From: Candidatus Yanofskybacteria bacterium RIFCSPHIGHO2_01_FULL_43_32
GTDB lineage: Bacteria > Patescibacteriota > Minisyncoccia > 2-02-FULL-40-12 > GWA2-44-9
Assembly: GCA_001794125.1 (NCBI GenBank)
Contig: MGJF01000013.1
Location: 450-64,449 of the forward strand
Direction of reading: 5' to 3'
DNA: 64,000 bases
Positions within the stretch are counted from its first letter, which is position 1. Each line of letters begins with the position of its first letter. Below are positions 9,517-63,488 of the stretch, piece after piece. The position numbers were made by a program, and so were the translations under genes. Below the pieces are notes generated by a model. It saw only the letters and a program-made list of their open reading frames with translations, made no database searches and was not told where the DNA came from.

Positions 9517-9834
9517 ATTATTTAGCTTAGTTATCTTACTCTAATTTTTATTTAAAATCAAGACCTCGCTCCGCCCCATCACTTTTCTGTCACGGTTCCT
9601 CGTCTCGGAAACCGACTCGGTATGGTTGAATTGATTTAAAACCAAAATAACAGGTAACCCACGCTTGCCTCCTCGCATATAAGAATATGCTCGGCGCTCG
9701 ACCTATTATTTTGGAAATCAATAAAATCAACCAACCTCATCTGTTTCCTCGCCTCGTCAAAGTGACATAAAAGCGATGGGGCTAGGCTTAACAAATTTTT
9801 ATATAAAAAAGCCGAGTTTATCTCGGCATCGAAT

Positions 9835-10149
9835 TTAATTATAGGCACGGCTCATTTTAAGCAAAACGGATAGAAAATGACTGGTTCCAATAACTAGTCC
9901 GCCACGGTCACTCTGATAAGCTTTTCTCCAAGCTTCCCAACGAGCTAGTAGGACTTTGGGCGTATCTTTTAGAAATATAGGGGCAGGTGTTTCATTAAAC
10001 CAAAACCAAGTAACACCTGGCCGATTCTTAATAGCATCTTTTAATGCATCAAACACATGATTGTGCGATATGTTTTTGTAGTGATATAAACCGGACTCAT
10101 CCTGTCTAAATTCACCACCAACGGTTTTTATTACCTTTTTAATGGACAT
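9835..10149 (-). CDS. Hypothetical protein (104 aa)
   Basis: It is an ORF only. It lies immediately downstream (on the minus strand) of structured element C. Confidence 0.4.
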   Translation of the reverse strand: MSIKKVIKTVGGEFRQDESGLYHYKNISHNHVFDALKDAIKNRPGVTWFWFNETPAPIFLKDTPKVLLARWEAWRKAYQSDRGGLVIGTSHFLSVLLKMSRAYN

Positions 10150-10220
10150 GGAAACCTCCTTGATTGCTTTGCCATATATTAAGCTACATTTTAATACTTG
10201 TCAATAGTTTCTTAAATTTA

Positions 10221-10441
10221 AGCTCCGCCCTCGCCACTTTATGCGTATCGCCCGAGCAGATGCAAACAAATGAACATCTCGGAGATTTTCAAGGTAACAA
10301 AAATTTAGCCGGAAAATCCCCTTAGGGAGGAACGGATGCTAGAATTTTTGTCTTGAATAATGACGAGATGGAATATTGTTTACCTGTTGAGGGCGGCCAA
10401 AGGCAATACGAAGTACACGCTTAAAGGGGTGAGGGCGGAGC
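10221..10441. other. Structured noncoding module C, partially homologous to element A, closed by GCTCCGCCCTC / GAGGGCGGAGC long-range stem
   Basis: The hairpin at 10297-10352 is ACAAAAATTTAGCC[GGAAAATCC..GGAGGAACGGAT]GCTAGAATTTTTGT. It matches the A hairpin at 7433-7492, with a conserved loop and covarying stem (AATTTT vs AAAATTT). Confidence 0.45.
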
Positions 10442-11317
10442 TTATCTTGAACTCATAAATAACTTTATCTTCTGCGCGACGAGTTTTTTGACTTCATCAA
10501 CTGCTGGGCTGAGATATTTGTAGGGGGTAGTTTCGTTTGGATGAGCGTGGAATTGCTTATCTATTTCATTGCGATAAGCCACGCGCAACTCAGTATTAAA
10601 ATGGACATTGGTAATCCCCGCCTTTATCGAGGCGGCCACATCTTCATCTTTCAATCCCGACGCCCCATGGAGCACATAATACGGTCTCGGCTCGGCAGAA
10701 ATAATTTTTGAAAAATGTTCTATATCTAACTTTTCTTCCTGGTCAGTGACTATGCCGTGAATATTGCCAAAAACCACAGCCATACGGTCCACTCCTGTTC
10801 GCGAAACAAAATCTGCAACTTCTTCCGGTTTTGAATAATCAACCGGACTTATTTCAATTTTTGTCTGAACTTCCGAAGAACCCCGCAAATAGCCAAGCTC
10901 GCCTTCTACGGAAATACCGGTCCGCCGGCTGGCGGATACCGAACGGCAGTAATCCACGACTTGTTTTGTCAATGCAATGTTTTCTTCATTTGGCAGTTTT
11001 GACGCGTCTATAATAATGGAATCATATCCGGCGTCTATCGCTTCTTTGCATTTGTCAAAGCTTTTATAATGGTCGGCATTAAGGAATATCGGGTAGTTCA
11101 TGTCCTCTTTCATCACTTTCACCAGGGCAGCGGCTTCTTTCATGCCGACAAAACCGGCCTCCCCTTCGGAGGTTCCGACCATCACCGCCGGAGCTCCGGC
11201 GTCGCGGCAAGCCTCGACTATTCCGCGCAGAACGTCTTGGGTGGCAAAATTAAAATGCCCGATGGCATAGCGACTTTCCTTAGCTTGTTTTAAATAGTAA
11301 TTTAAATTCTCCATCAA
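10442..11317 (-). CDS. fba: Class II fructose-bisphosphate aldolase
   Basis: The protein carries LKQAKESRYAIGHFNFATQDVLRGIVEACRDAGAPAVMVGTSEGE. Confidence 0.8.
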   Translation of the reverse strand: MMENLNYYLKQAKESRYAIGHFNFATQDVLRGIVEACRDAGAPAVMVGTSEGEAGFVGMKEAAALVKVMKEDMNYPIFLNADHYKSFDKCKEAIDAGYDSIIIDASKLPNEENIALTKQVVDYCRSVSASRRTGISVEGELGYLRGSSEVQTKIEISPVDYSKPEEVADFVSRTGVDRMAVVFGNIHGIVTDQEEKLDIEHFSKIISAEPRPYYVLHGASGLKDEDVAASIKAGITNVHFNTELRVAYRNEIDKQFHAHPNETTPYKYLSPAVDEVKKLVAQKIKLFMSSR

Positions 11318-23424: not shown

Positions 23425-23499
23425 ACAAAAACTCGCTCCGCCTTGCCGCTTTCTGATTAATCTCTCCGTCTCATTATTAACTTAGAGACAATGTGCTCT

Positions 23500-23890
23500 G
23501 CCAACCGGCTTCTCGGAACCAGAATGCTTTTGCTCCAGCGGCAAAAGCTTCTTCTCCCTCGGCGCTTGGCAGAACCAAGCCCAAGCGCCTGCGGGTCGTT
23601 CCTCTAAGCCGATTGGCCTCGCCTTATCGCAAATGTCGACTTTTTTTGTTTCAAAAAAATTATAGATTACAAAGCGAAACCCCGCCCATTTCAGACCGTT
23701 TGGTTTCGAGGGTAACACAATAGTTAAATTAGCCGATAATTTACGTTATTCAATAAATATGGGAGCAACTCTTGGAGCGGGACCTATGTTTGTTAACTAA
23801 ATTGAGGGTAATTTAACTATTTGTCCGAAGAAGGCCGGAGGCCGCAATCCAACAGGTCGGAAATGGGGAGGGGTAAGCGATGTTTTAGGC
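23500..23890. ncRNA. Copy B of the paralogous structured noncoding element
   Basis: It aligns with A over about 390 nt. Hairpins are at 23526-23548 (GCTTTTGC/GCAAAAGC) and 23561-23589 (GGCGCTTGG-CAGAACCAAGC-CCAAGCGCC). A conserved block is GCGAAACCCCGCCCATTTCAGACC...GGTTTCGAGG. A long-range pair is AGTTAAATTA with TAATTTAACT. The 3' block is ATTTGTCCGAAGAAGGCCGGAGGCCG.AATCCAACAGGTCGGAAATGGGG. Confidence 0.55.
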
Positions 23891-26103: not shown

Positions 26104-26142
26104 GTCAAAATAATAAAGCCCCGCCATGGCGGGGCTTTATTA
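26104..26142. terminator. Hairpin AAAGCCCCGCC-ATG-GCGGGGCTTT
   Basis: An 11-bp stem with an A/T tail. Confidence 0.6.
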
Positions 26143-26267
26143 TTCCGGAAAATTTCTTTACCGCGAAATACCCGAAACAAAAGCTGCGAACCAAAGAAAG
26201 TGGTATAAATAAAAGGCAATTACTTATCAACATATCGCTTTTTAAGTTATGCTAAAATTAAAGTGAG

Positions 26268-26561: not shown

Positions 26562-29500
26562 ATGCGGTTCGCAATAATTTTAACGGCTCTTTTGCTTTTT
26601 CCCGCCGGATTTGTTTTTGCCGCCGAAACGCAGATAGACGCATCGGTTGATGTCACAACCGCCGCTCACAACGGCAGCAGTCCGACTGTCGTTTTTACTT
26701 CCGACAACATTGGCTACGCTTTTTACAGTGACAGCGCCGGCACTTGCGCTTACAGCAAGACGATAAACGGCGGGTCAAGCTGGGGAACTCCCGTTACCGT
26801 TGACGCCCAAACGGACTGCAACCATATCGCCGTATGGTATGACGGCTGGACCCCGGGCATTTCCGGAGGATACATTCATATCAGCACCATGGATGCGGCC
26901 GATCTTTGGTATAACCGGCTTGAGGTATCTTCGGACACGCTTCTTTTGGGTTCCACTCCCGTTAACGCCAGCGGCGCCAATCAGGCCGGGGTCTTTACCG
27001 CCGCGGCAAATACTCATTCAATAACAATGGGAACCGACGGAGACGTCTACATGGGTGTTCAGGATGCCGGTGACTCTTTTGTCGTCAAATGTTCGGCATC
27101 CTGCGATACGGCGGACAATTGGACGGAGGCGGGTTTGGTCAGCCCGTTCGATCTGGATGAGGACTGGCTGATACTGATGCCGTTATCTGGCGAGAATATT
27201 TTGGCTATCCGTTGGGATATCTCCGGAAATGCCATCCAGTCAAAAGTTTACAACGATACTCTGAATACCTGGGACGTTCTTTGGGCCAATGTGGACAGCA
27301 ACGCTCTTGAAAACACGACTTACGACGCCGCTTTCGGCGCTACGCTTAAAAGGTCCACCGGGGACATGTATCTTGCCTATGCCGGTGACTACGGGACACT
27401 CGGCACCGATGACGATATCCGCACGGCCGTTTACAGCGGCGGGGCATGGACAGCCAAGACCAACGTTCTGACCAACGACACCAAGGGCATCACCGGGGTA
27501 AAAATAGCCATAGACGACAATACGGCCGATGATGTCTACGTTGTTTACAGCGCCCGCGCCACGGCCGGAACCGCCGCAACAGGAAATATTTACTATAAAA
27601 AATCATCGGACGGAATGGCCACATGGGGAACGGAACAGGGTCCGATAAACACTACGGCCGGAGACTTATACGGCTCAAGGGTTAATATTATTTCTGACCA
27701 AAGAATTTACGTTACCTGGGACCTGCCGAGCGCGGACGACATTCTCGGAACCACCATTGCGGACCTTGCTCCGCCGGCCATTACGGTTGGTTCTGCCGGC
27801 ACACAGACCGTTAATCTCACCATCCCCTCCGCTGACGCTTATGTCGGAGGCGCTTTTACTTTTCTGCGGGACAATGAATCGGCCAACGTTACCCAGATAA
27901 TTATCTCTGAAACGGGAACGGTAAATGCAAACACCAACCTTTCGGACGTAAAACTTTACTACAAAGCCCAGGCGGCCTGTGATTCGGCGCTTCCGGGAGA
28001 CGCAACCCTCTTCAATTCTTCGGCCGGCACTTTTAGTGGATCGGAAAAAGCCGCTCTTACCGGAACGATGAGTGTGAATGGAACGCAAGTATGCGTTTAT
28101 GTCCAGATGGACATCGGCTCCGGTGCGATTGCGAATGACACGCTCGAAATAGAAATAGCCAATCCTTCTGCCGATATTGCCGTAAGCGCCGGCGGCATCT
28201 TGCCGGCAACCTCCGTCGCCATAAGCGGCACCACAACCCTGATCTCCAACAACGCTCCCGCTGCTCCCACAAATGTTTCACCACCCAACAGCACTTCTGT
28301 GGTCACTCTCACTCCGATGCTTGAGGCCTCCGCGTACAGCGACAACGAAAGCGATACCCATGCCGCAACCCAGTGGCAGGTCACGGCCGTTTCCGGCGAC
28401 TACTCAAGTTCGGTATTCGACTTTACGTCCTCGACGGGAGAAACCTCACGGGTGATACCGGCAGATACGCTTTTGAACGCAACCACTTATTACTGGCGCG
28501 TCCGATACCGCGATAATTTCAATGCGACCCACTGGTCCAATTATTCCACAGAGACTTCATTCCTAACCGCCAATAATGCCCCGGCTGCTCCCACAAACAT
28601 CTCGCCAATTAACGGCACCTCGGTCACCACCTTAACGCCGATGCTTGAGGCCTCGACATACAGTGATCCGGAAAGCGACACCCACGCCGCAACCCAGTGG
28701 CAAGTTACCTCAACCCCCGGAGATTATTCCAGTCCGGTGTTTAATTTCACCTCCATAACCGCGGAGACCTCGCGAGTAATCACGGCAAGCACGCTTTCGA
28801 ACACCGCGACTTATTACTGGCACGTCAGGTATAGAGACAATATCAACCCAACCCACTGGTCTAACTATTCAACTGAAACGTCTTTCATTACCGCCCTAAC
28901 CCAATTATCCATCAAGATCGAGGCCCTAAGCGGCAAGACGGAATATTTTATCGGCGACAACGTGCCCCTGGACGTTCAGGTGACCAATTTCACCACCGGC
29001 TCGCCAATAAACGATGCTGCTGTGACGGTAAGCGTTTTTGATCCGAGCGGAACCAAGATAATCACGGATCAGGCAATGGCCTATATATCAAACTCCAGCG
29101 GAATATACAGATACACTATGGTAAACCCTACGGTCAATGGAACGTATGTTTATGAAATTAAGGCCGTAAAGAGCGGCCAGTCCGGCTACGGAGCGGCTAA
29201 TTTCCAAGTCGGCGCATTGGCCAGCACAAAAGCCTTGAGCGAAAGCATCCAGGCCTCCCAACAGAAAATCAGTACCGCCACGCTCTCGGACGTAGGAAAC
29301 CTTGAATTGGGAAAAACCTACCGAGCCAAACTGACACTCGAAAATTTTGAAAGCGAGCTGACCGATTCCTTCAGTTTGCCGACCATAACAATCTATGACT
29401 CTTTGCGGAATGTGTTAATAAATTCATTGCCCATGACAAAAATAAACGACGGAACTTACGAATTTACGTATCTTACCGGTGCCGGCCAAGTATCCGGTTT

Positions 29501-34211: not shown

Positions 34212-34628
34212 ATGATCATGGATAAAGTATCGAAAAACAAAAGAAGCGACATCATGCGAGCGGTAAAAAGCAAAAATTCAAAAATCGAGATCTCCTTGAT
34301 GCAAGAATTGAGAAAAAGAAAGATCGCTTACAAAAAACATGTTCCCAACCTCCCCGGAACTCCGGATATCGTTCTGAAAAAAGAAAAAGTCGCCATATTC
34401 GTGGATTCTTGTTTTTGGCATGGATGCAGGTGGCACGGAACCATGCCGGCTTCAAATAGAAAATTCTGGACTCAAAAAATATCCGCCAACAAAGCCAGAG
34501 ACAAAAGAGTGACCGTCATGTGCCGAAACTTGGGCTGGAAAGTGTTGAGATTTTGGGAACACCAACTGGAAAAAGATTTTGATGGAATAGCGGACAGAAT
34601 TCAAAAACAAGCGACTCTAATCCGGTAG
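34212..34628 (+). CDS. vsr: Very-short-patch repair endonuclease
   Basis: The protein contains SDIMRAVKSKNSKIE, LPGTPDIVL, VAIFVDSCFWHGC and LGWKVLRFWEHQL, which are Vsr signatures. It converges on the dcm gene and overlaps its 3' end by 12 nt. Confidence 0.85.
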   Translation: MIMDKVSKNKRSDIMRAVKSKNSKIEISLMQELRKRKIAYKKHVPNLPGTPDIVLKKEKVAIFVDSCFWHGCRWHGTMPASNRKFWTQKISANKARDKRVTVMCRNLGWKVLRFWEHQLEKDFDGIADRIQKQATLIR

Positions 34629-35702
34629 ATTCTCCAGGTGGTTTTTTATGCTTGAAGCGATAGCCCGTCCCAATAAAACCGGGACAGCATTGCCTATCAG
34701 GCGGGCCGTTTTGGTCATGGAGACATTATCTCCTTCATTGAATCGATAGTGAGAAGGGAAGCTTTGTAATAATGCCGCTTCTCTCAAAGATATGGCTCTG
34801 TTTTGAGAAGGATGACCGAATCTTCCGGTCCCGAGATTTACGCAATGCGTCGTGATCGTCGGTGAAGGTTCATCCCATTTCATCCTGCCGTAAACTGAAG
34901 ACATGTATGAATGCCCGCTGGCCTTTTTATAACAAGCCGGCATAAGTTCCGGTTTCCAACTTTTGGCGTTCCCGCCGTTCTTCGGCGTAGCCATTACTCT
35001 TCTTTTGTTCAAGGGACTCAATTTGCTCGCCCTGTGAAGCGGATCTTTTCGATCGACTTCCCCGTCTTTTATGTGTTTCAAACCAAAGATGGCATCTCGG
35101 ACCGTCACGAGGTTATTTTTGTCTTTAGTTTCCGGAACCAGATTTATTTCTCCGAATTTCGAGGCCAATAATACCAACCTTTTTCTTTTTTGAGGAACGC
35201 CGTACTTCGAGGCATCCACGACTCGGTAAAAAACATGATATTTGTTTTTTCGCAAAGAAGCCAGAAACTTTTTGAATATGGGATACTTTTTTTCTTTCGC
35301 GAGATCGGGAACATTTTCCATGGAAATTATGGCCGGTTTGGTATGGGCTATCAAACGACCGAATTCCTCGAGCGGTTCCCATCTTTTATCGCTTTTTCTA
35401 TGGGCGGAATTTTTACGATTCAGAGCCGAAAATGGTTGACACGGAGCGCAACCGACGAGGATTTTTATTTCGGCATTTCCAAATAATCCGTTCAATTCGG
35501 AAGAAGATAGATCGGAAACATTTCGATGAACGAATTTTGTCCGGTTGTTTTTTTCGAACGGATATCTGCACGAGTTGTCGATGTCGACTCCCGCCACGAC
35601 ATCGAATCCCTCCAAGACAAAGCCGTGAGTCAAACCACCCACACCGCAAAATAAGTCGACGACTTTTGTCATCCCCAACATTTTCTTTCGAGACGACTCC
35701 AT
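34617..35702 (-). CDS. dcm: DNA (cytosine-5)-methyltransferase M1
   Basis: The motifs are I DLFCGVGG, IV CAPCQPFS, VI ISMENV, VIII YGVPQKRKR and X IGNAVPV. Confidence 0.85.
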   Translation of the reverse strand: MESSRKKMLGMTKVVDLFCGVGGLTHGFVLEGFDVVAGVDIDNSCRYPFEKNNRTKFVHRNVSDLSSSELNGLFGNAEIKILVGCAPCQPFSALNRKNSAHRKSDKRWEPLEEFGRLIAHTKPAIISMENVPDLAKEKKYPIFKKFLASLRKNKYHVFYRVVDASKYGVPQKRKRLVLLASKFGEINLVPETKDKNNLVTVRDAIFGLKHIKDGEVDRKDPLHRASKLSPLNKRRVMATPKNGGNAKSWKPELMPACYKKASGHSYMSSVYGRMKWDEPSPTITTHCVNLGTGRFGHPSQNRAISLREAALLQSFPSHYRFNEGDNVSMTKTARLIGNAVPVLLGRAIASSIKNHLENLPD

Positions 35703-39948: not shown

Positions 39949-40003
39949 GAGTTTTATTTTTTATCATCGCAGAAAAATCCGATAAAATCAAACTTGAAAA
40001 CGA

Positions 40004-40873
40004 TTGAAAATATGGGGATGTTGTGCGATTATATGCTCAAAAACTATGGGGCGAAATACAAAAACAATTTACAATGAAACGTTCTATTGGCTGTCAGGAA
40101 TTTTGAATAGCAAAGAGTTTTTGTCGCAAATCAGAGAATTGAAAAACTCTTTCCGGCGATTCGGTTGCCAATTGCCGGCCAAGGGTTTCTATAAGAGTAT
40201 GCGCCGGGACAGAGCTTTTGCGGCATGGCATAAAAAACTTCAGAATGCCTGGACAGAAGCGGTCAAAAGCGATGCCTACAGAAATGCTCGAGCCAAGGTA
40301 ATAGGAAAAAAACAAAACTGGTCCCGCAAAGAACAGGACCGGCTCGACAAAATAGACCAAAAATTTCTACCCCCAATCAACTACGGAGATAAATTGAATC
40401 AAATATTGTTGAAGTTCGATCTCGATCCGGAAAACAGAAGCCATAAAGATTGGATACGTAACTACTTATTCTTCGGCGAAAGAAATTTTACGAGACCGAG
40501 TTATAAACTAAGAGTTGTTACCGGAAAAGACGGTCGACCCGAACTCTGGGTCAGGTTTTTTGGCCATACAAGTGTTGCGGACTTGCCAATGCGAGAGATA
40601 CGGGAAATCCAAAAGTTCCTTCCCGATTACAAGGGCAAAAATCGAAGAAAAGACAAGCGTGTCGCCAAGCGCAATAAAGAGGTTGTTGATGAATACTTCC
40701 GGTTGAAAAAATCGCCACGGCTTACATCATATGACAGAAGTGAAAAGGGCAACTCTATAGCAAATAAAATCATAGCTAAAATCGGCAAAAAATACCCGGA
40801 GCTGACTTCCGGATTGGTAAAAGTTGTAATAGCTAAAAACAAGAATAAGGAAAAGCATAAGGAACAAATCTAA
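40004..40873 (+). CDS. Hypothetical basic protein
   Basis: It is an ORF. The probable start is at MGRNTK, 40046. Confidence 0.35.
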   Translation: MKIWGCCAIICSKTMGRNTKTIYNETFYWLSGILNSKEFLSQIRELKNSFRRFGCQLPAKGFYKSMRRDRAFAAWHKKLQNAWTEAVKSDAYRNARAKVIGKKQNWSRKEQDRLDKIDQKFLPPINYGDKLNQILLKFDLDPENRSHKDWIRNYLFFGERNFTRPSYKLRVVTGKDGRPELWVRFFGHTSVADLPMREIREIQKFLPDYKGKNRRKDKRVAKRNKEVVDEYFRLKKSPRLTSYDRSEKGNSIANKIIAKIGKKYPELTSGLVKVVIAKNKNKEKHKEQI

Positions 40874-40905
40874 TTTTTTCCTTATCCCCGGCCTATATCA
40901 AAAAG

Positions 40906-40932
40906 TTCTACGATATCCGTATAGCAAATACG
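40906..40932 (+). terminator. Hairpin ATCCGTAT-AGCAA-ATACGGAT + T6
   Basis: Read directly from the sequence. Confidence 0.6.
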
Positions 40933-40947
40933 GATTTTTTATTCCGG

Positions 40948-41002
40948 CTATGGGGATTAGAAAACGCTACAGTTAGCCCCATAGCTGTAGCGTTTTCTAA
41001 TG
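40948..41002 (+). promoter_or_regulatory. Interlocked inverted repeats (pseudoknot or alternative-hairpin topology) whose 3' arm contains the ATG of the downstream small ORF
   Basis: X is CTATGGGG, 40948-55. Y is ATTAGAAAACGCTACAG, 40956-72. The loop is TTAG. rcX is CCCCATAG, 40977-84. rcY is CTGTAGCGTTTTCTAAT, 40985-41001. The Y/rcY pairing is 17 bp perfect. Confidence 0.5.
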
Positions 41003-41203
41003 GAAATAAGCCCAGACAAAATTCAAAGATTGATAGACCATCGACTGAAGAAATATGGGGAGATTTTGACGCCGGAGGAAGCGAAAGAGGATCTGGAATC
41101 TGGGGTTAGATTGTTCGGCTGGCTTTTGAAATACGACCGCAAACAAAATGTTGAAAATCCGAAAGTGAAGAAGGCCGATGATACCGAGGGTCTGGTTCTG
41201 TAA
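41000..41203 (+). CDS. Small hypothetical protein (67 aa)
   Basis: It is an ORF. Its start is sequestered in the stem above and no SD is present. Confidence 0.3.
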   Translation: MEISPDKIQRLIDHRLKKYGEILTPEEAKEDLESGVRLFGWLLKYDRKQNVENPKVKKADDTEGLVL

Positions 41204-41485
41204 GGGACCGGGCCCATGGGATCATCCCATGCGTCGCAAAGGGGCATACTCGTGGTGCTCGCCGGGCGACGTAAATAAACCGGCGAAAGATTACGAGCGA
41301 CCGACCGACGCGACCGACGGTGATGACAGAGGGCGCGCCCGGATTATCTGATTTCTCAATCTACTGTCAAAGATGATTGAAGAAAGACAATCAGAATAAG
41401 AAGGGCTGTCCACGGAGCAGACAGAGCAATCACCAGAGGGAGCGGAGGGAGGGAAGGCCTGGAAAAGAATAAGAAATCGGGGTTT

Positions 41486-41683
41486 ATGTCGACAAAAACG
41501 CAAAATGACAAACAGCGGCGTGTTACAAGACAGATCAGAATTTCTTCCGACTTCCATCGGAAGGTCAAACTGCTTGCCGCCGAACAGGGAAAAACAATTT
41601 CCATCCTCGTAGATGGGATTTTGAATCAATACTTTACCCCACCCGTCCCGGATAGTCCGGACGGATCGGAAATAAAACAATGA
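41486..41683 (+). CDS. Ribbon-helix-helix (CopG/Arc/ParG-like) DNA-binding protein
   Basis: RISSDFHRKVKLLAAEQGKTISILVDGIL fits the RHH pattern of a beta-strand followed by two helices. Confidence 0.6.
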   Translation: MSTKTQNDKQRRVTRQIRISSDFHRKVKLLAAEQGKTISILVDGILNQYFTPPVPDSPDGSEIKQ

Positions 41684-42183
41684 ACCCCGCCAAACTTCAC
41701 TCTACTAAAAACCGGCCGGCTCGGTTGAAGAAACACCACTTCCGGGCCGTAGAACTCCGCTACGAAGGCAAAACCTACCGGGAGATTTCGATGCGGTTGA
41801 GCGAAGAACTGCAACATGATTTCAAAGAGCAGACGGTCAAGTGGTGGTTTATGTCTTATGGCCTCTTGGAGGAGCTGTATGTGGATTATGCCCGGAAAGA
41901 AAACGATCGGCGGCGGCAATTCATAATCGAGGAGTGTAAAAAATTGATTCCTCTTATTCCTAAAAAATACAACGAGATCATCAATCGGAACACTTCGGAT
42001 ATGACCCCGGCCCAGCTGACATCTTATCACTCTGTTCTGCGGCAAACACTGAAAGACCTTTGCGAACTGCTGAATTTCAAAGTAGAGCCGGATGAGGTGA
42101 TAACGGATCCGCTGGACGAATACTTTGATCGGGCTGAAGCGGAACTTGATCGTGAAGAAAAAGAGAGAAACAGATCGCCGTAA
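41680..42183 (+). CDS. HTH-domain protein (terminase-small-subunit-like or sigma-region-4-like)
   Basis: It contains HHFRAVELRYEGKTYREISMRLS. It overlaps the RHH gene by 4 nt (ATGA). Confidence 0.45.
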   Translation: MNPAKLHSTKNRPARLKKHHFRAVELRYEGKTYREISMRLSEELQHDFKEQTVKWWFMSYGLLEELYVDYARKENDRRRQFIIEECKKLIPLIPKKYNEIINRNTSDMTPAQLTSYHSVLRQTLKDLCELLNFKVEPDEVITDPLDEYFDRAEAELDREEKERNRSP

Positions 42184-42187
42184 AGAA

Positions 42188-42345
42188 TGGATAAACTGCC
42201 GGTTTCTGGTATAATGGCAATGCTTGCCTACTATTCAAAACTACCGAAGTTCTAACCGCTTGCGATTCCAAACGGGGTGGTTAGACCTCCACAAGCGGGA
42301 CTTCGGTTCTGTGAATAGTGGGCAAGCAGGTTTAGCCGCCCCTTT
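42188..42345 (+). ncRNA. Candidate small RNA: promoter TGGATA-N16-TATAAT, then ~110-nt imperfect long hairpin with inner stem CCGCTTG/CAAGCGG, then GCCGCCCCTTTT
   Basis: The promoter is at 42188-42215. The inverted arms are TGCTTGCCTACTATTCA...CCGAAGTTC and GACTTCGG...TGAATAGTGGGCAAGCAGG, at 42221-42330. Confidence 0.4.
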
Positions 42346-42401
42346 TGAATTTCTGGCAATTTGTAAACCAAGCGGTCTGAACTCAAAATGGGTCAATAGA
42401 A

Positions 42402-42686
42402 ATGGATAGGATCAAAAATATGGGGTGGGGGCAGTGGATACTGATCGGCGTGGCTGGATCAATCTTTTTGGCCATCATCGGGTCGACGGAAGCCGGGAAG
42501 GTATTGCTCGGCTTGGCATTTATCATCGGGCTGATACTCTTGTATTTCCTGCCGGCGATAATAGCCGGGAGAAGGAGGAACCCGGATGAAAAACAGATCA
42601 TGATCCTCAATGTGTTCCTCGGATGGACATTCGTGGGATGGGTGATCGCCCTGATCTGGGCGTATAAAGAACACCCCAAAAAATAA
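42402..42686 (+). CDS. Superinfection immunity-family membrane protein
   Basis: It has two TM helices and the motif FLGWTFVGWVIALIWAY, typical of the Imm_superinfect family. Confidence 0.65.
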   Translation: MDRIKNMGWGQWILIGVAGSIFLAIIGSTEAGKVLLGLAFIIGLILLYFLPAIIAGRRRNPDEKQIMILNVFLGWTFVGWVIALIWAYKEHPKK

Positions 42687-42743
42687 AAGAAAAACTCTCC
42701 CGCCTGGAAGCAAAGAGAGTTTTTCGACAATAACCTTTCGGCT

Positions 42744-44510
42744 TTGTTATTATCAGGATATCACGAGATATACTGGCGAGGCAAACCGGAAGCTCAAGCT
42801 ACCATGACAAATATAAAAACCAATATGGCGATAGGTTATGGCCGAGTGTCGTCTCTGAACCAAGAGATAACTGGATACTCTTTGCCGGCACAGGAAAAAA
42901 TCATAAGAGATTATGCTGAAAAACATTCTCTTGAAATCGGTAAGAGGATTATACTTGTTGCCGAATCGGCAAGCGGCAAAGTCGACAGAAAAAAATTCCA
43001 CGAGATGCTGGATTTAGTGAAGAAAGAGGGCATATGCAACATGATAGTTGAATCGGTGGACCGCTTGGCGAGAAATTTCCGGGAAGCAAATAAAATTGAC
43101 GAGTGGCTTATGTCAGACGGAAGAAATCGAATCCATTTCATAAGAGGGTCCACAGTCATGCATAAAGATTCAGAATATCAAGAATGGTTTTTCTACAGAA
43201 TGAATTTAGCCGCCGCCGAAATGGGAACTAAACAGATTTCAGCGAATGTGAGAAAGGGACAAAAAGAAAAAATCGCCCAGGGCGGATTTCCAAGCAAACC
43301 GCCACTCGGATACCGAACTACCGGGGAACGAGGCCACAAAACACACGAGATAGACCCAGAGAAAGCTCCTTTCATCAAGCAGATGTTTGAACTTTATTCA
43401 TCCGGCCAGCATTCCTTGAAATCGCTGACGAAATTGCTCGAGCAAGAAGGCCTCCGCAATAGATCGGGAAGGCCTATTGTAAAAAGCCGCGTAGCGGAAC
43501 TTTTATCCGATCCGTTTTACTACGGCGACATGAGGTGGGGCGGAGAAATCTATCTGGCTGGACACAAACCGCTGATAAGCAAGGAACTTTACGACCGGGT
43601 TCAAAAGATAATGCACTCGAAAACTACGCCGAAATACCGGAAACACGATTTCCTATTCAAACAGCTTATGAAGTGCGAGATCTGCGGAGGCACCATAACC
43701 GGTGAAATACAAAAAAACCACATCTACTACCATTGCAACGGATATCGGGGCTGTAAAAGGCGGATTTCGGCCCGTGGGGATGTATTGGAAGCCCAGATCA
43801 TAGAAGTGTTCGACTGGTTTGAGAACGGCCTCGACCCGGAAGAAGTGGGCATCGTCCAAGAAATATTGAAGGAAGACCATAAAGATAAGATTCAATACAT
43901 GCAGAACCAGATCTCTGAAATACACAGCCGGCTGAATACTCTAACCCAAAGAGAAAAGAGGGATTATGAAAACATGCTCGATGGGAAAACAACCAGAGAA
44001 GAACACGACCAGAGGATAAAAGAGTGGGGCCTGGAAAAACAAGCCCTAATAGACAAAGAATCGAAACTGGCGCAAAACAATACCCATGATCTGTTGCTTG
44101 GCAGTTCGTTTATGGATCTGGCCCGGCGGTCCCGGGAAATCTACAATGGGCTAAAAGATGATGTCCGGGCTAAAAGGGAGTTTTTATCGCTGATATTTTC
44201 GAACCTTACATTGAATAACGGAATTCTCAAGAAATTCTATAGAACCCCGGTCCTCCGCATCCGGGAAAGAGCAGAGCAGGCGAAAAATTTCGAACCAACC
44301 AAAAACCCCAGTATTAATGGGGCTTCTGGCGTTCTTTATCATCAACCAATAGAACCAATGCTTCCCTCGGCTTCTAAAAATTACGAACCGAAAGAATCAC
44401 TGATTCTAAGCCACGATTTAAAGGTTGAACCTACAAATCACGACCTCTGCTCCGCGGCCAGGACTCGAACCTGGAACCATCTCCTTAACAGGGAGCCGCT
44501 CTACCATTGA
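42744..44510 (+). CDS. Large serine recombinase (resolvase catalytic domain + recombinase domain + Zn ribbon)
   Basis: It contains IGYGRVSSLNQE (the catalytic Ser motif) and a Cys cluster CEICGG...YYHCNGYRGC. The 3' end of the ORF runs antisense through tRNA-Asn. The true start is probably ~42804-42825. Confidence 0.8.
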   Translation: MLLSGYHEIYWRGKPEAQATMTNIKTNMAIGYGRVSSLNQEITGYSLPAQEKIIRDYAEKHSLEIGKRIILVAESASGKVDRKKFHEMLDLVKKEGICNMIVESVDRLARNFREANKIDEWLMSDGRNRIHFIRGSTVMHKDSEYQEWFFYRMNLAAAEMGTKQISANVRKGQKEKIAQGGFPSKPPLGYRTTGERGHKTHEIDPEKAPFIKQMFELYSSGQHSLKSLTKLLEQEGLRNRSGRPIVKSRVAELLSDPFYYGDMRWGGEIYLAGHKPLISKELYDRVQKIMHSKTTPKYRKHDFLFKQLMKCEICGGTITGEIQKNHIYYHCNGYRGCKRRISARGDVLEAQIIEVFDWFENGLDPEEVGIVQEILKEDHKDKIQYMQNQISEIHSRLNTLTQREKRDYENMLDGKTTREEHDQRIKEWGLEKQALIDKESKLAQNNTHDLLLGSSFMDLARRSREIYNGLKDDVRAKREFLSLIFSNLTLNNGILKKFYRTPVLRIRERAEQAKNFEPTKNPSINGASGVLYHQPIEPMLPSASKNYEPKESLILSHDLKVEPTNHDLCSAARTRTWNHLLNREPLYH

Positions 44511-44521
44511 GCTACCGCGGA
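44450..44521 (-). tRNA. tRNA-Asn (anticodon GUU), CCA not encoded
   Basis: The reverse complement is TCCGCGG-TA-GCTC-AATGGTA-GAGC-G-GCTCC-CTGTTAA-GGAGA-TGGTT-CCAGG-TTCGAGT-CCTGG-CCGCGGA-G. Confidence 0.8.
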
Positions 44522-46989: not shown

Positions 46990-47030
46990 CGATTTTAATA
47001 AAACAACCCCGCCATGGCGGGGTTGTTTTA
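46990..47030. terminator. Hairpin ACAACCCCGCC-ATG-GCGGGGTTGT + T-run
   Basis: Bidirectional, between csp and rpoD. Confidence 0.6.
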
Positions 47031-48260
47031 TTATTCGTAACCCTTAAGTTTTCCGAGTTTGTGATGCTGGCGGATTTTTTCAAGCGCTTTGGCTTCAATC
47101 TGTCTGATGCGTTCTCTGGTAACGGTAAACACTTTGCCGACCTCTTCAAGAGTATGGGTAACACCGTCGTTAAGACCGAACCGCATGTCAAGTATTTTTT
47201 GCTCTCTCGGGGTCAGGTCGGAGATTATTTCATCAATGTATGTCTTTAAAATTTTGCGCGCGGCGGACATTGAGGGCGATATGGTATCCTCGTCGGGAAT
47301 AAAACTCTCCAGAGAACTGTCTTCGTCTTCATCCCCCACCGGCGCTTCAAGAGAAATGGTCTCCTGGGATATCTTCTGGATATGTCTTACTTTTTCCACT
47401 TCCATTCCCATTTCCGAAGCAATCTCTTCCGGCATCGGATCGCGGCCCAAGTCCTGGACCAAACGCCTTACGACCTGCTGATATTTATTGATGGTTTCCA
47501 CCATGTGAACCGGAATGCGGATGGTCCTGCCCTGGTCGGCTAAAGCGCGGGTGATGGCCTGTCTTATCCACCAAGTGGCATAGGTAGAGAACTTATATCC
47601 TTTTTTATAATCAAATTTTTCAACGGCTTTGAACAGACCGATATTCCCTTCTTGGATGAGATCAAGCAGGGTCAAATTGGCCGAACGGCCGACGTATTTT
47701 TTGGCGATGGAAACAACCAAGCGAAGATTTGAGACGGCCAACTTCTGCCTTGCCGACTCATCATTCTTCTCAATCTTTTTTGCGAGCTCAACCTCTTCGT
47801 CTCCGGTAAGCAAAGGATACCGGCCTATCTCTTTCAGATACATCTGAACCGAATCAGACGCAACATCGCCGAATTCAGTTTCTATTTTCTTTTTCTCGTC
47901 GTATTCTTTGACTTTTTCTTCTTCAAAGACCTTTCCCGATTCTATTATGTTTATATTCGCCGATTCCAGCCGCTCATAAAGAGCCTCCAAACCTTTGATG
48001 TCTTTTTCTATGCTGGGAAAGGCGCTAAGAACTTCCGCCTGGGTCACAAAGCCCCTTGACCTGCCTTTTTCAATTAAAGCCAAAACCCCGCTCTCCGAGA
48101 TCGGGCTTTTCTTGCCTGTCTGCCGATGGGCACGGCTGCTTGCTTGCTTTCCTTTGGATCTTCTGGCGACTTTCTTTGCTTTCTTTGTTTTTTTAGCTTT
48201 CTTCTTTACCTGTTTTCTAACCGGCTTTTTAACTTTCTTCTTTTTTAGTTTTTTCTTCAT
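47031..48260 (-). CDS. rpoD: RNA polymerase sigma-70 factor
   Basis: Region 2 is [59 protein letters not shown]. Region 4 is [27 protein letters not shown]. Confidence 0.9.
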
Positions 48261-50100: not shown

Positions 50101-53100
50101 TTATCTTCGGAAGGTATCTGCGAGTCCTATCAGGGCCTGCAGACTCGAGGTCAGAAAACGGTTCAAGATTGACTTGATTTTTTGATTGAGTATCTGTCGA
50201 AGCGGCTCTTGTTTTTCCGATGAACTGGCTATGGGCGAAAAGCTGGACTGCAAAATATTAATAGAGCTTAATGTCAGCGGGCCAACATAGCCTGTGGCCG
50301 GTATTCCGTATCTTGTTTGGTAGGCCTTAACTCCGGCCAAAGTCAAAGAACCGAAGTAACCGGTGACCGGGCCGGTGTAGACGCCTTCGCGGGTGAGAAG
50401 TTCCTGCAGAGATTTGACATCTTCGCCTTGAAGACCGAAACGAAGATAGCGCGAAAACTTTACCGGAAGAACGGGGCTTTTGCCCGATTTAAACTGTGTA
50501 AGAATCTCCGCCCCCAAGTTACCGTTGCTGTTCTTGGCAATTTGCGGCTTGGAGGCAGCCGGCACCGCTTTTGAAATTGAAATTGTATTCAGAGAACTTA
50601 TTGTAACCGGACCCACGTAGCCCGTGGCCAAGATGCCGTATTTAAGCTGGTAGGCCTTAACCGCGCTCTGGGTCAAAGAGCCGAAGTAGCCGGTGACCGG
50701 GCCGGTATAAACACCCTTGCGGGTAAGAAGTTCCTGCAGGGACTTTACGTCTTCGCCCTGAAGACCGAGATACAAGTTGCGGGAGAAAAGAAAGGGAACA
50801 TTCGGATTCGGTGTCGGAGAGATTTTTTTACTTGCCGGCAGGACTTGCGGACTCGGAGTTGGAGAAGGAACAGGCGCCGGAGTAGAAACGGGAGGGGTCC
50901 AAGAACCGCCTCCGCCTCCGCCTCCGCCGCTCACAACCGGCGTCGGGGAAGGAACAGAAGCGGTGAATACCGCAAAACTGCTGAAATGTTTTGTCCAAAC
51001 GGCAAGGTCGCTCCCAACATCAATTTTACAATCGGCGCCGGCAGCCAAAGCGTCACCTGTTGTCTGGGAGTCGTCAGCGCATGTTGAGGTAATTTCGGTA
51101 AATGGCCCGCCGTGCGAATAGCCGATGCGTTTACCCGCTTTGCCTTCAATGATAATGCGGATACCTTTGTTAAAAGTAAGCTCCGTGTTTCCGAACCCCA
51201 CCTCAATCACCGATTCTACGGTACCGTCCACGCCCGACACGGAATCATTGGCTTTCACTGTCGGCGCGTTGATAATTCCTGACCACGCCGCGCCTCCGCT
51301 GACCGTAACCTCGTCCGGAATAGACACAGTAACGTTACCCACGGATGTTGCCGCGCTTATAGTAATTTCCGGCAAAACTCCATTGCCATCGTCACCAATG
51401 AGGTTGTTTACGTTGATAGTAACGTCATCTACACCCTCGGGAATAGTGATGCCGTTAGCGGCATCGTCATCCAAAATTACAATTTCATCTCCGTCTGTGT
51501 CCGTTTCCACATCTGCTCCGCCTTCCTGTTGACCTTCGTCAAACGCGGAATCAATAAAAAGAAGATTGTTGGCTTCGTTACCCACCGCATCCGCCACATC
51601 CGCAATCACATCGTTCGCGAATGTTATATCAAACTCCGCATTTCCCGTAATAGTGAGTCCTGAATCATCACTCCATTCATAGCCGCCGGGCTCGTGATCC
51701 GCTCCCGCCGAAATCGCGTTCTCAACCGCCGTCTTTCCGGCAGCAGAAAGCCGCTCGCTGAACGTCATTCCAACGGAGCTACCCGAGGGAATAACATAAT
51801 CCTCGCTCCCGTTACCCAATGCGCTCACAGTCGGCGGGTCGTTGTCGGTTTCAAATTCACTGAATCCGGTAGTCGTAAAAATGAGCGTCTGTGATTCGCC
51901 GTCCCAGCTGAAGCCGCCGAGAGTATGCGAATACTCTGCTAACTCACAATTCTCTTCCTCGTCGCAGATCTCTTCGTTCCAGGAAATAGACACTTCCTCG
52001 GTAGTATTGTTGGATACATATCCGCGAACCGTACCGTCATTCCCTTTTACAACCAGTCCGGGACGATTGGCAGTATCCACGCGCATCCGAAGTTCTGCCG
52101 GAAGATTCAGGGCCTCAAGAGCGCTTGAATCAATGCGTATTTCCTCGCCGCTGATGGTCAAATTTGTCCCGAAATTTGAGAGGCCGGTGATAGTGGCCTG
52201 ATCAGTCAGATTAATGTGATTTTCGGCGTTACCGAGGGTAAGTCGGCCGATTTCGATATCGGTGTATTCGTCTAATTCCTCGTCGTACTCATGCGCGCTG
52301 AATACCAGTTCAGGAACATCGGTGAAATCGCTTATTGCCGACCAATCCGTTGTCGCATCGTTGTTAAGCGCTCCATTTAATTGCTTCGGGTCAATACCGA
52401 ATGCGGCAACAAACATCTGTGCCGGTAAAGCACTAACGGTCATATTTCCGACATCATCGGTAAGTTCAATATTCATAACGTATCCTCCGCTGGTTTCCGG
52501 GAAATATCCAATGGATTCATTCAGTTCCCAAGCAATATCGTTGTCGGGTAAATCAACTAAACCGAAAGTGGCATAATAATCATCGGTGTCGAAATCTTCG
52601 GTGCTGCATTCGTATTCTGGATCATCATCGTTAACTCCCGCAAGACAAACCTTAACCGAAGCAAGCGGATTGCCGTCTGATTCGGCAGCCGCAGTTACCC
52701 GCATTCTGAAAGAGTCGCCGTCGTAGTAATACCAAACAGTCGTCACGGTAGCGGGATCGTCCCCGTCTTGTTTAAAAATCTGGAGAGGGTCCGTATCCCC
52801 GAAAGCGGGCGCTATTGTATCAACGGCTTCAGTCAACGCGCCAGTATCAATAGAAACCGGAGCGTCATCATTATCGCCGTAAGTTAAAGTAACCTTTGAC
52901 GCGTCGGCGGCGCCGGCAACATCAATACCAAAAGCGCCGGCATCCGCAACAAAAATGTTCGCGCTGAAGACGTCGCCCGTACCGCCGTTATCTTCTGTAC
53001 AATATAAAACCGCATCGGCATAGCCGCCATACTTCCGGAGGTCTGCCGTCACTGTGGTACCGGCATCGGCGCACCCGCCGTCATCATTATCCAAGTTCAC

Positions 53101-59787: not shown

Positions 59788-59820
59788 AGGTCAATCGTAT
59801 CAGATTTACTTAATCGAAAT

Positions 59821-59890
59821 CCTCCCCATTTCAGACCCGTTGCCTGCGCCTTCGGTCTCAAATGGGTGGGGGGGGTTCGCTCTTAATCGG
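59821..59890. other. Minimal relative (D) of the A/B element: CCCCATTTCAGACC hairpin partner GGTCTCAAATGGG plus AAGAGCGAA-complement, with a G8 homopolymer at 59868-59875
   Basis: Seen directly in the sequence. A 26-nt near-perfect palindrome lies nearby at 59900-59925. Confidence 0.4.
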
Positions 59891-60170
59891 TTGCAATCTC
59901 AACGGCTCACACATGTGAGCCGTTGATTTAAGCCCCCAACCACATTCCTGCAAATAGAGCGAATGCCTCATCCCGCCTGATTCATCGTCCTGGATAAGTT
60001 TGCTTAATAAATAAGCCGCTAATCAAAGAAATCTTAACATAGCGAAGCAATCTTAAGATTTCTACAATGATTAGCGGCTATTTATTCAAACTTAGAAAAA
60101 AGATGAGAGGGCGGGGTGGGGCATTCGCAATATTTTAAAAACAAAAAAAGACGAGAATTTATCTCGTCGG

Positions 60171-63339: not shown

Positions 63340-63488
63340 CGCCCCGCCACCGCCTCGCTTCACTCGGCGACACCAAAGAAAAATGTTCCTTGCTTTTTGG
63401 ATTTGCGCGCGACCAATTTCTTCTAAAAAGGAAAGGACATTTTTCTTTGGTGTTCTGCCCTCCAAGTATTCGGGCAGGTGGCGGGGCG
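63340..63488. repeat. ~150-nt near-perfect large palindrome/hairpin in PRTase upstream region
   Basis: The outer stem pairs CGCCCCGCCACC with GGTGGCGGGGCG. The inner stem, at least 24 bp, pairs ACACCAAAGAAAAATGTTCCTTGC with GGAAAGGACATTTTTCTTTGGTGT. Confidence 0.55.

Follow-up and report, generated by a model that had tools for sequence, protein, structure and literature searches.

A dispersed superfamily of long-hairpin intergenic repeats in Candidatus Yanofskybacteria and related Patescibacteria

Element C and its location

The DNA analysed here is a stretch of 64,000 nucleotides from Candidatus Yanofskybacteria bacterium RIFCSPHIGHO2_01_FULL_43_32 (GenBank assembly GCA_001794125.1, contig MGJF01000013.1, positions 450 to 64,449 of the forward strand), referred to below as the window. 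One of its intergenic gaps is occupied by element C, which is located between two minus-strand genes and abuts the stop codon of one of them, an aldolase gene (10442-10444, minus strand). The pairing of C can be extended to 10220-10443 and then overlaps this stop codon. On its other side the element lies upstream of a sigma-70-like promoter (TTGACA-17-TAATAT, 10204-10176, minus strand) that belongs to a gene for a protein of 104 amino acids. The conserved module at the tip of C is found on the strand opposite to both genes.

Element C belongs, as one of its copies, to a large superfamily of intergenic repeats that are non-coding, measure ~220-240 nt and fold into long hairpins. These repeats are dispersed, with several copies per genome of ~1 Mb, and have been gained and lost at orthologous sites. 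As far as sampled, the superfamily is confined to Yanofskybacteria/Paceibacteria-type bacteria of the Candidate Phyla Radiation (CPR). The literature on miniature inverted-repeat transposable elements (MITEs), palindromic repeats and structured RNAs of CPR/Patescibacteria yielded no description of such elements, and the family is apparently undescribed so far.

Fold and subfamily of element C

An 11-bp stem had been proposed to close element C, and this stem is present: GCTCCGCCCTC (10222-10232) pairs with GAGGGCGGAGC (10431-10441), and pairing runs inward from there over nearly the whole 221 nt. The resulting architecture comprises an outer stem, a three-way junction with a small side hairpin, mid stems and the tip module. 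The plus strand has a minimum free energy of -95.4 kcal/mol (z = -9.1), and none of 200 shuffled sequences was as stable. The minus strand reaches -92.9 kcal/mol (z = -9.4). Since the complementary strand folds almost equally well, C is basically a long DNA palindrome.

The original prediction described C as a partial relative of element A, another long hairpin of the window (Table 1), with which it was thought to share one module. C is more than that, as its overall architecture is that of A. The two types also align weakly over positions ~14-240 (nhmmer, E = 1e-8 to 1e-4 for C against A-type copies). C is a diverged subfamily and no fragment. This subfamily has 10 members, namely C itself and nine full-length relatives from other genomes or metagenomes (collected loci L157, L231, L156, L183, L146, L145, L108, L224 and L240). 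Their alignment contains 75 consensus pairs, of which 19 are compensatory, and the closing stem of C is rewritten in the relatives as GCGGAA/TTCCGC, CGGAGC/GCTCCG or GCGTAG/CTACGC.

Size and distribution of the family

Further copies and covariation elsewhere, for which a search had been proposed, were both found, with at least ~140 copies in all. A scan of one genome per bacterial or archaeal species with the pattern CCGGAAAATCC-N(4-30)-GGAACGGATG returned at least ~30 true copies in ~10 metagenome-assembled genomes (MAGs), all from Patescibacteria among the matches listed. These MAGs are assigned to Yanofskybacteria and Paceibacterota or are bins labelled 'Saccharibacteria', and carry at least 3-4 copies each. 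Approximately 60 matches with a 4-nt gap in Burkholderiales/Rhodocyclaceae represent conserved coding sequence and were discarded, as were ~25 other matches attributed to chance. A relaxed pattern applied to metagenome contigs found at least ~108 more members, mainly in groundwater from Rifle and Hainich; the viral contigs scanned contained no copy.

A profile built from A-type copies (nhmmer) gave 149 non-overlapping matches in 0.88 Mb of collected sequence, 90 of them full-length. The A-type alignment of 21 sequences contains 56 consensus pairs, 15 of which display compensatory double changes. In Rfam, only tRNAs reach the gathering score within the window, and no family matches the long hairpins; at E<=10, the regions 7100-7700 and 10100-10500 returned only spurious matches to microRNAs and long non-coding RNAs far below threshold. 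Signal recognition particle RNA, 6S RNA, retron msr/msd, attC sites, k-turns and type I toxin mRNAs were considered as identities and dropped by reasoning on copy number, context, missing partner genes or motif mismatch.

The tip module

The tip hairpin of C pairs ACAAAAATTTAGC (10297-10309) with GCTAGAATTTTTGT (10338-10351), as had been proposed, with one G bulged. It includes a CG/CG mini-helix with a 3-nt GAU bulge, a purine internal loop GAAAA/GGAA, and a variable hairpin, P2, which reads UCCC-CUUA-GGGA. The loop segments TTAGCCGGAAAATCC and GGAGGAACGGATGCTA are common to A and C, with exact occurrences at 7440/7469 and 10305/10326 and nowhere else in the window. The same anatomy is found family-wide: a basal helix, P1, of 12-13 A/U-rich pairs, the GAU bulge, the CG/CG helix of 2 bp, the internal loop 5'-GAAAA/5'-GGAA, and P2. 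Past its initial UCCY/RGGA, the latter is free to vary in length and sequence, with its self-complementarity kept.

The stem had been said to covary between A and C while the loop segments are conserved. The stem difference is indeed a compensated change, and the observation is borne out across at least ~140 copies. In a set of 29 copies from four outer-arm subfamilies, 98.1% of the cells of the module alignment are paired, and 29 double-change cells were counted versus 8.3 expected in shuffles (0/500); slid controls of this test all collapse. The invariance of the loops is partly imposed by the search patterns. Five copies obtained independently of the patterns provide an unbiased view of tip conservation. 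The module is retained in three of these five, apart from single-base changes; in the fourth it is reduced, and the fifth, element B of the window, has a different tip. Every subfamily retains the same asymmetric tip module, consisting of P1, GAU bulge, CG mini-helix, GAAAA/GGAA loop and variable P2, and this module probably serves as a site of protein recognition.

The mini-ORF within the tip

The original prediction had pointed to a Shine-Dalgarno (SD)-like GGAGG located 5 nt ahead of an ATG that opens a tiny open reading frame (ORF) of 10 codons in A and 6 codons in C. These features exist as claimed (in C: GGAGG 10326-10330, ATG 10336-10338, mini-ORF 10336-10356), and had been taken as the layout of a leader-peptide or attenuator device. 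On that reading, the frame of the mini-ORF forms the 3' strand of the tip stem, and its translation would control a gene downstream. In line with this idea, GGAGG precedes the AUG by 5 nt in most copies, the AUG opens the 3' strand of P1, and the first nine codons (MLKFVKQIE) are recurrent. The location and strand of the copies contradict it: for every neighbour examined, position as well as orientation is wrong for a device in the 5' untranslated region (UTR) of a regulated gene. In the case of C this is evident from its position between two genes of the opposite strand. Element A lies between the divergent promoters of rpsB and rpmE, both of which are conserved in the related loci L124 and L125.

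The start codon, the SD-like motif and the frame are not conserved either. The start is UUG in ~23 of the ~108 metagenome copies listed and GUG in one. In ~13 copies (~1 in 8) GGAGGAA is changed to GGGGCAAA, with loss of the SD-like motif, and this occurs where a pair of P2 changes from U-A to C-G. Indels of 1 nt shift the stop codon, giving ORFs of 6-40 codons, and the amino acid replacements K/R, V/I and K/N/E mirror compensated base pairs. No runs of regulatory codons were found in the mini-ORFs. There are also no terminator/antiterminator alternatives, given that a single nested long hairpin dominates the ensemble on both strands and no alternative helix is supported by covariation. Finally, the closest relatives lack the module in their orthologous intergenic regions, an outcome that the original prediction had itself named as refuting, and this too speaks against a leader mechanism. 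Hence, control by a leader peptide appears extremely improbable and is effectively excluded. The SD-like GGAGG and the AUG are, we infer, by-products of the 3' strand of P2 and the internal loop and no translation start. In the trp, his and pheA type of leader-peptide attenuators, SD-AUG and a tiny ORF likewise lie inside a hairpin. The family described here differs from these in that it is not found in the 5' UTR of any gene, has the wrong strand in most copies, offers no alternative pairings or regulatory codons, and has an unconserved ORF.

Related elements in the window

At least six long hairpins are contained in the window (Table 1). Elements A and B are homologous long hairpins, and A is 78-92% identical to copies in ~10 other MAGs. 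Relatives of the tip of B were not found among the loci collected. Element D, proposed earlier as a minimal relative upstream of a gene for a 1135-aa protein, was confirmed as such; it carries a G8 run and an inverted AAGAGCGAA, is located 34 nt upstream of the gene start, and is probably an internally deleted copy. Elements E and F are members of further families found in multiple genomes (other CPR contigs). F sits between the gene for the 104-aa protein and rplY (L25), with relatives in L156, L194, L062 and others, and shares its 5' end with C. E has relatives in L144, L049 and L143, and the entire gap 59788-60170 folds with z = -12. A small hairpin, CAACGGCTCAYACATRTGAGCCGTTG, occurs at 59903-59930 and also at L088 303-329 and L075 ~5845-5875, beside long hairpins of different genomes; possible identities are a terminator and a further small repeat.

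Table 1. Structured repeats of the window (plus-strand coordinates)
Feature	Position	Strand	Description
Element C	10221..10441	+	Complete 221-nt long-hairpin repeat, C subfamily; identified by fold z-score and nine full-length relatives
Tip module of C	10297..10351	+	P1, CG/CG mini-helix, GAU bulge, internal loop, P2
Element A	7351..7587	+	Full-length A-type long hairpin; tip module 7433-7492, mini-ORF 7479-7511
Element B	23671..23884	+	A-type long hairpin; tip module replaced by an unrelated small hairpin (~23747-23814)
Element D	59821..59890	+	Minimal 70-nt hairpin; only the outermost ~20 bp of both A/B-type arms; orientation ambiguous
Element E	59951..60135	+	~185-nt long hairpin; begins with AGAGCGAAUGCC; different tip
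Element F	9566..9790	+	~225-nt long hairpin; 5' end CTCGCTCCGCCCC as in C; different tip; fold z = -9.1
f2, copy 1	7197..7345	+	Y-shaped structured repeat, immediately 5' of A
f2, copy 2	23497..23624	+	Immediately 5' of B; all changes in closing stem and hairpin 1 against copy 1 are compensated

A second repeat family, f2, is found next to some of the long hairpins. It has a fully covarying closing stem and two hairpins with the conserved loops UCCGGCG (UCCRGCG across copies) and CAGAACCAAGC, and exists in a short form of ~130 nt and a long form of ~215-235 nt. Further copies are present at L088 117-234, L055 3243-3480 and L016 1134-1352, and three more in L143. Altogether f2 was found at 35 places in the collected loci; in 12 cases a long hairpin of the same orientation follows directly on its 3' side, versus 1 case with the opposite orientation.

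Strand polarity

Each copy of the family keeps its hairpin by compensatory changes and by G.U pairs on the strand that bears GGAGGAACGGAUG. Of 60 distinct full-length copies, 59 fold better on this strand than on the complementary one, with a mean difference of 12.8 kcal/mol (Wilcoxon p = 2e-11). The same 60 copies contain 342 G.U pairs on the GGAGGAACGGAUG strand versus 144 on the other, and a tally of per-pair counts over the A-type consensus helices gave ~60 G.U cells versus ~10 A.C cells. The asymmetry is equal in sense, antisense and convergent copies. It is thus independent of the local direction of transcription, and a property of the element's own polarity rather than of host mRNAs. 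The pairing is under selection on one strand.

This data may suggest a functional structured RNA family instead of a selfish mobile element, with each copy selected as an RNA hairpin. Such hairpins could act in cis, as transcript ends, insulators or RNase targets, or could bind a protein via the conserved internal loop; in the protein-binding case, the hairpin might be co-transcribed with the Y-shaped f2 at its 5' side as an RNA of ~400 nt. Besides the one-strand G.U pairing, this reading is consistent with the abundant compensatory changes in individual old copies, with loops, bulges and the three-way junction that keep their position between the A and C subfamilies while the helices vary, and with the oriented adjacency of f2. 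The site and orientation data of the following section bear on it in both directions.

Genomic context, site occupancy and ends

The long hairpins are almost always intergenic, and the contexts at 125 distinct places (45 tandem, 27 convergent and 5 divergent) display a strong preference for gene 3' ends. The neighbours are unrelated housekeeping genes (RNR, gyrA, ftsZ, dnaX, lon, topA, rplY and others). No recurrent transposase was found beside the at least ~140 copies, nor any transposase among 20 ORFs of the window, except for an unrelated large serine recombinase (42744-44510).

In 34 of the 45 tandem contexts the module strand is antisense to both flanking genes, versus 11 in sense (p = 8e-4). 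A U-tract after the hairpin does not account for this bias, as the number of U among 10 nt is not significantly different between the strands (4.05 vs 4.53, p = 0.053). Orientation is not biased with respect to GC skew (14 vs 11). No conserved upstream promoter was found at a fixed distance, and -10-like hexamers occur without a preferred distance. For a functional RNA several of these results are unfavourable. There is no conserved promoter and no significant strand difference in U-richness after the hairpin, and with the well-folding strand being antisense in most tandem contexts, read-through transcripts would mostly carry the strand that folds worse. In addition, A is located between two divergent promoters that fire away from it.

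Concerning these two promoters, those of rpsB (7155-7192, TTGATT-17-TAATAT) and rpmE (7586-7623, TTGACT-17-TAGAAT) are conserved between species. Their distance to the start codons is only ~7-10 nt, so that the mRNAs must be leaderless or nearly so. The start of rpsB is called differently by annotation pipelines, giving proteins of 240, 228 or 216 aa.

Variation in the presence of copies at orthologous sites was observed between species only. In the closest relatives, whose aldolase is 85-90% identical, 4-74 nt follow the aldolase gene and C is missing; their syntenic block from aldolase to rpsB contains no A-type copy. Both C and the pair of f2 and A are missing from L122, L124 and L125, and the spacer between the rpsB and rpmE promoters measures 22 nt in L124 and L125 vs ~395 nt in the window, where f2 and A fill it. 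In L055, a copy is located upstream of rplY instead, at a different site of the same block. The same intergenic spots are filled in different genomes by other subtypes or orientations, for example the spacer between ATPase and HD-hydrolase genes, the region downstream of ftsZ, and the region upstream of an MBL-fold/gyrA cluster. The absence from orthologous sites of close relatives argues against a functional RNA; the sharing of occupied intergenic spots by several genomes argues for it, as does a divergence within genomes that equals that between genomes (see below). Adding the lack of any Rfam match to the points against, we consider a functional RNA family the main rival but not the favoured reading.

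Similarity between copies begins abruptly at AAGCGAA. The 5' tail, (T)AAGCGAA, is nearly invariant. The 3' tail has a direct version, GAGCGAYTATT, and an inverted one, TTCGCTTA, which is TA-flanked in some cases. From end to end the element forms an imperfect inverted repeat, and there are copies whose terminal AAGCGxx is paired to xxCGCTT. A direct (G)AGCGA(A) stands on both sides of many copies, and inverted motifs instead on the sides of some; A has GAGCGAA at either side, and in a cross-species comparison the empty site in L124 reads AAGCAAG at the place that corresponds to this flank. These flanks of the AGCGA type are suggestive of a preferred target.

The family is also mosaic, with outer arms, side hairpins and tips that have been exchanged, deleted or loaded with nested hairpins. 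Nested small hairpins occur at fixed points in L062, L157, L166, L169, L202 and L241, and replaced tips in B and in L237.

Interpretation

Based on this dataset, we hypothesize that the family represents a non-autonomous mobile or once-mobile element of the MITE, ERIC or REPIN kind, which is processed in the form of one folded strand, its tip being the site of protein recognition and its AAGCGA-type ends the junction or target. The probability of this reading is put at roughly one half. In the mechanism envisaged, the element would act as one folded strand, either a single-stranded DNA (ssDNA) intermediate or a transcript of its own polarity. The conserved tip would be recognised by a trans-acting protein encoded elsewhere, and the ends (T)AAGCGAA and GAGCGA/TTCGCTT would provide the junction or target motif. 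A copy once inserted would be tolerated, and may act as a hairpin at a transcript end.

Several observations weigh against such a mobile origin. An autonomous partner or transposase was not found in the 0.88 Mb of collected sequence. Sequence varies most at the outer ends and least at the tip, which is the reverse of a classical MITE driven by terminal inverted repeats (TIRs). The flanking AGCGA is near-constant across copies and is thus no ordinary random target-site duplication. Near-identical strains that differ by one insertion were not found, and look-ups of identical proteins (the 104-aa protein and L31) gave only contigs of the same strain with identical elements. Identity within a genome (79%) is the same as between genomes (78%), without a sign of recent bursts, and the nearest relative of A (92%) is located in another MAG. 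Moreover, old copies whose hairpins have stayed intact through compensatory changes speak for selection on every single copy, and with this a functional RNA agrees no less well.

As a sub-case of mobility, the repeats may be palindrome-associated transposable elements (PATEs) of the IS200/IS605 type, or REPINs, which would be mobilised as ssDNA by an HUH/Y1 transposase or a RAYT enzyme that reads the folded top strand and an adjacent short tag. The strand-specific folding is compatible with this, and so are the near-invariant AAGCGAA tag that precedes the hairpin (its 3' end carries a similar GAGCGA), the orientation bias relative to gene direction (a proxy for the direction of replication), and the oriented adjacency to f2, the ends of which carry the complementary CTCGCTT. 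On the other hand, the elements form one long hairpin and not two subterminal ones, display no bias with regard to GC skew, and have diverged within genomes, unlike REPIN populations. From what Ton-Hoang et al. reportedly described in 2010, IS200/IS605 top strands would be expected on the strand opposite to the well-folding strand observed here, which counts against PATEs. No Y1 or RAYT gene was detected in the 0.88 Mb of collected CPR sequence, which comes from incomplete genomes, in a weak test by tblastn with IS608 TnpA and E. coli RAYT as queries, nor in the window ORFs tested. AAGCGAA is neither GTAG nor CGTC, the tags of the known REP superfamilies (PMC3733652). Attractive as it is, this sub-case lacks an enzyme and is on balance unlikely.

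A further suggestion, which we make with some doubt, is that selection maintains, at dozens of loci in streamlined CPR genomes, a structured nucleic acid of a new, strand-specific class. It may be a family of protein-binding RNAs, possibly bipartite with f2 and hairpin forming a unit of ~400 nt, or a hairpin transposon moved in single-stranded form by a type of enzyme that has so far not been associated with elements of this sort. On both views the ligand would bind at the invariant GAAAA/GGAA-CGG-GAU tip.

CPR/Patescibacteria have genomes of ~1 Mb that are usually seen as streamlined and repeat-poor. In the window, most of the larger intergenic gaps are filled by hairpin repeats of ~200 nt from several related families, and the same repeat families recur across many groundwater CPR lineages. 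If mobile, they would constitute a previously unrecognised component of the CPR mobilome and would cause rearrangements as well as breaks in the assembly of CPR MAGs. Should they instead work as RNAs or as hairpins that bind protein, they would indicate RNA or DNA biology still unknown in this uncultivated radiation. The selection on one strand and the conserved tip offer handles for metatranscriptome mapping, protein pull-down and covariance models; the latter would help annotation by preventing false calls of mini-ORFs or riboswitches.

Comparison with known repeat systems

The nearest analogues are repeats of the ERIC/RU type, other MITE-like repeats of bacteria, and REPINs. Hulton in 1991 and Wilson and Sharp in 2006 are said to have described ERIC/IRU as intergenic palindromes that form hairpins. 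Like the family described here, the enterobacterial ERIC/IRU, RU-1 (127 bp) and YPAL/RU-2 (168 bp) are imperfect palindromes that fold into a long hairpin (PMC3184786). They are strictly intergenic, occur in either orientation, and are often located at gene 3' ends and co-transcribed (PMC3184786). They are also highly conserved between species, have size variants that arise by internal insertions or deletions at fixed points, and lack a transposase of their own (PMC3184786). Some ERIC/IRU-type copies are flanked by TA (PMC3184786), and here this is the case for L016 and L031. The present family differs in that it has no sequence similarity to ERIC/IRU, belongs to a different phylum (CPR) and has ~2x the length. 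It also differs by its three-way junction, its asymmetric and strongly conserved tip with variable, covarying outer ends, its marked strand-specific G.U pairing, and its association with a second, Y-shaped repeat.

Classical MITEs (Correia/NEMIS, RUP, Nezha, Chunjie) resemble the family in being non-coding, multi-copy elements of 100-400 bp with inverted-repeat arms, long stem-loops at the RNA level and insertion polymorphism (PMC3184786). The repeats described here are likewise non-coding, shorter than ~400 bp, multi-copy and dispersed, and they have terminal inverted repeats. Classical MITEs have conserved TIRs that match a parent insertion sequence (IS). Their target-site duplications are random and have a fixed length, and the copies in one genome are near-identical. 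The present family, in contrast, has no known parent IS, its ends are the least conserved part, its flanking motif is near-constant, and identity within a genome is only ~79%. Neither the neighbours of the at least ~140 copies nor the 20 window ORFs include a parent IS or transposase with matching ends.

The REP/REPIN-RAYT system shares with the family the extragenic hairpin palindromes, a short conserved tag 5' of the stem and the location at gene 3' ends (PMC3116915, PMC3733652). REPs and REPINs persist vertically and are mobilised in trans by a single-copy enzyme (PMC3116915, PMC3733652). REPs are 20-40 nt long (REPINs ~100 nt), carry GTAG or CGTC tags and are near-identical within a genome (PMC3733652), as opposed to ~230 nt, AAGCGAA and 79% here.

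Other features of the window

The large serine recombinase mentioned above (with Resolvase, Recombinase and Zn-ribbon domains) abuts a tRNA gene (44450-44521). The region ~40000-44500 has reversed GC and AT skew and several ORFs without a Pfam match, and is probably an integrated mobile element or a prophage remnant. Near-identical perfect palindromes, AATAAAGCCCCGCCATGGCGGGGCTTTATT, are located at 26109-26144 and 46997-47032 and look like bidirectional terminators. Strong inverted repeats occur at 63370-63453 (32-nt arms at 88% complementarity) and 40956-41001 (a 20-bp hairpin with 19/20 paired). Internal tandem duplications at 28238-28861 (300 nt at 72%) and 50256-50787 (202 nt at 76%) lie in ORFs of 1207 aa and 1401 aa, respectively, and probably represent repeated protein domains. 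A gene for a C-5 cytosine DNA methyltransferase is present at 34617-35702.

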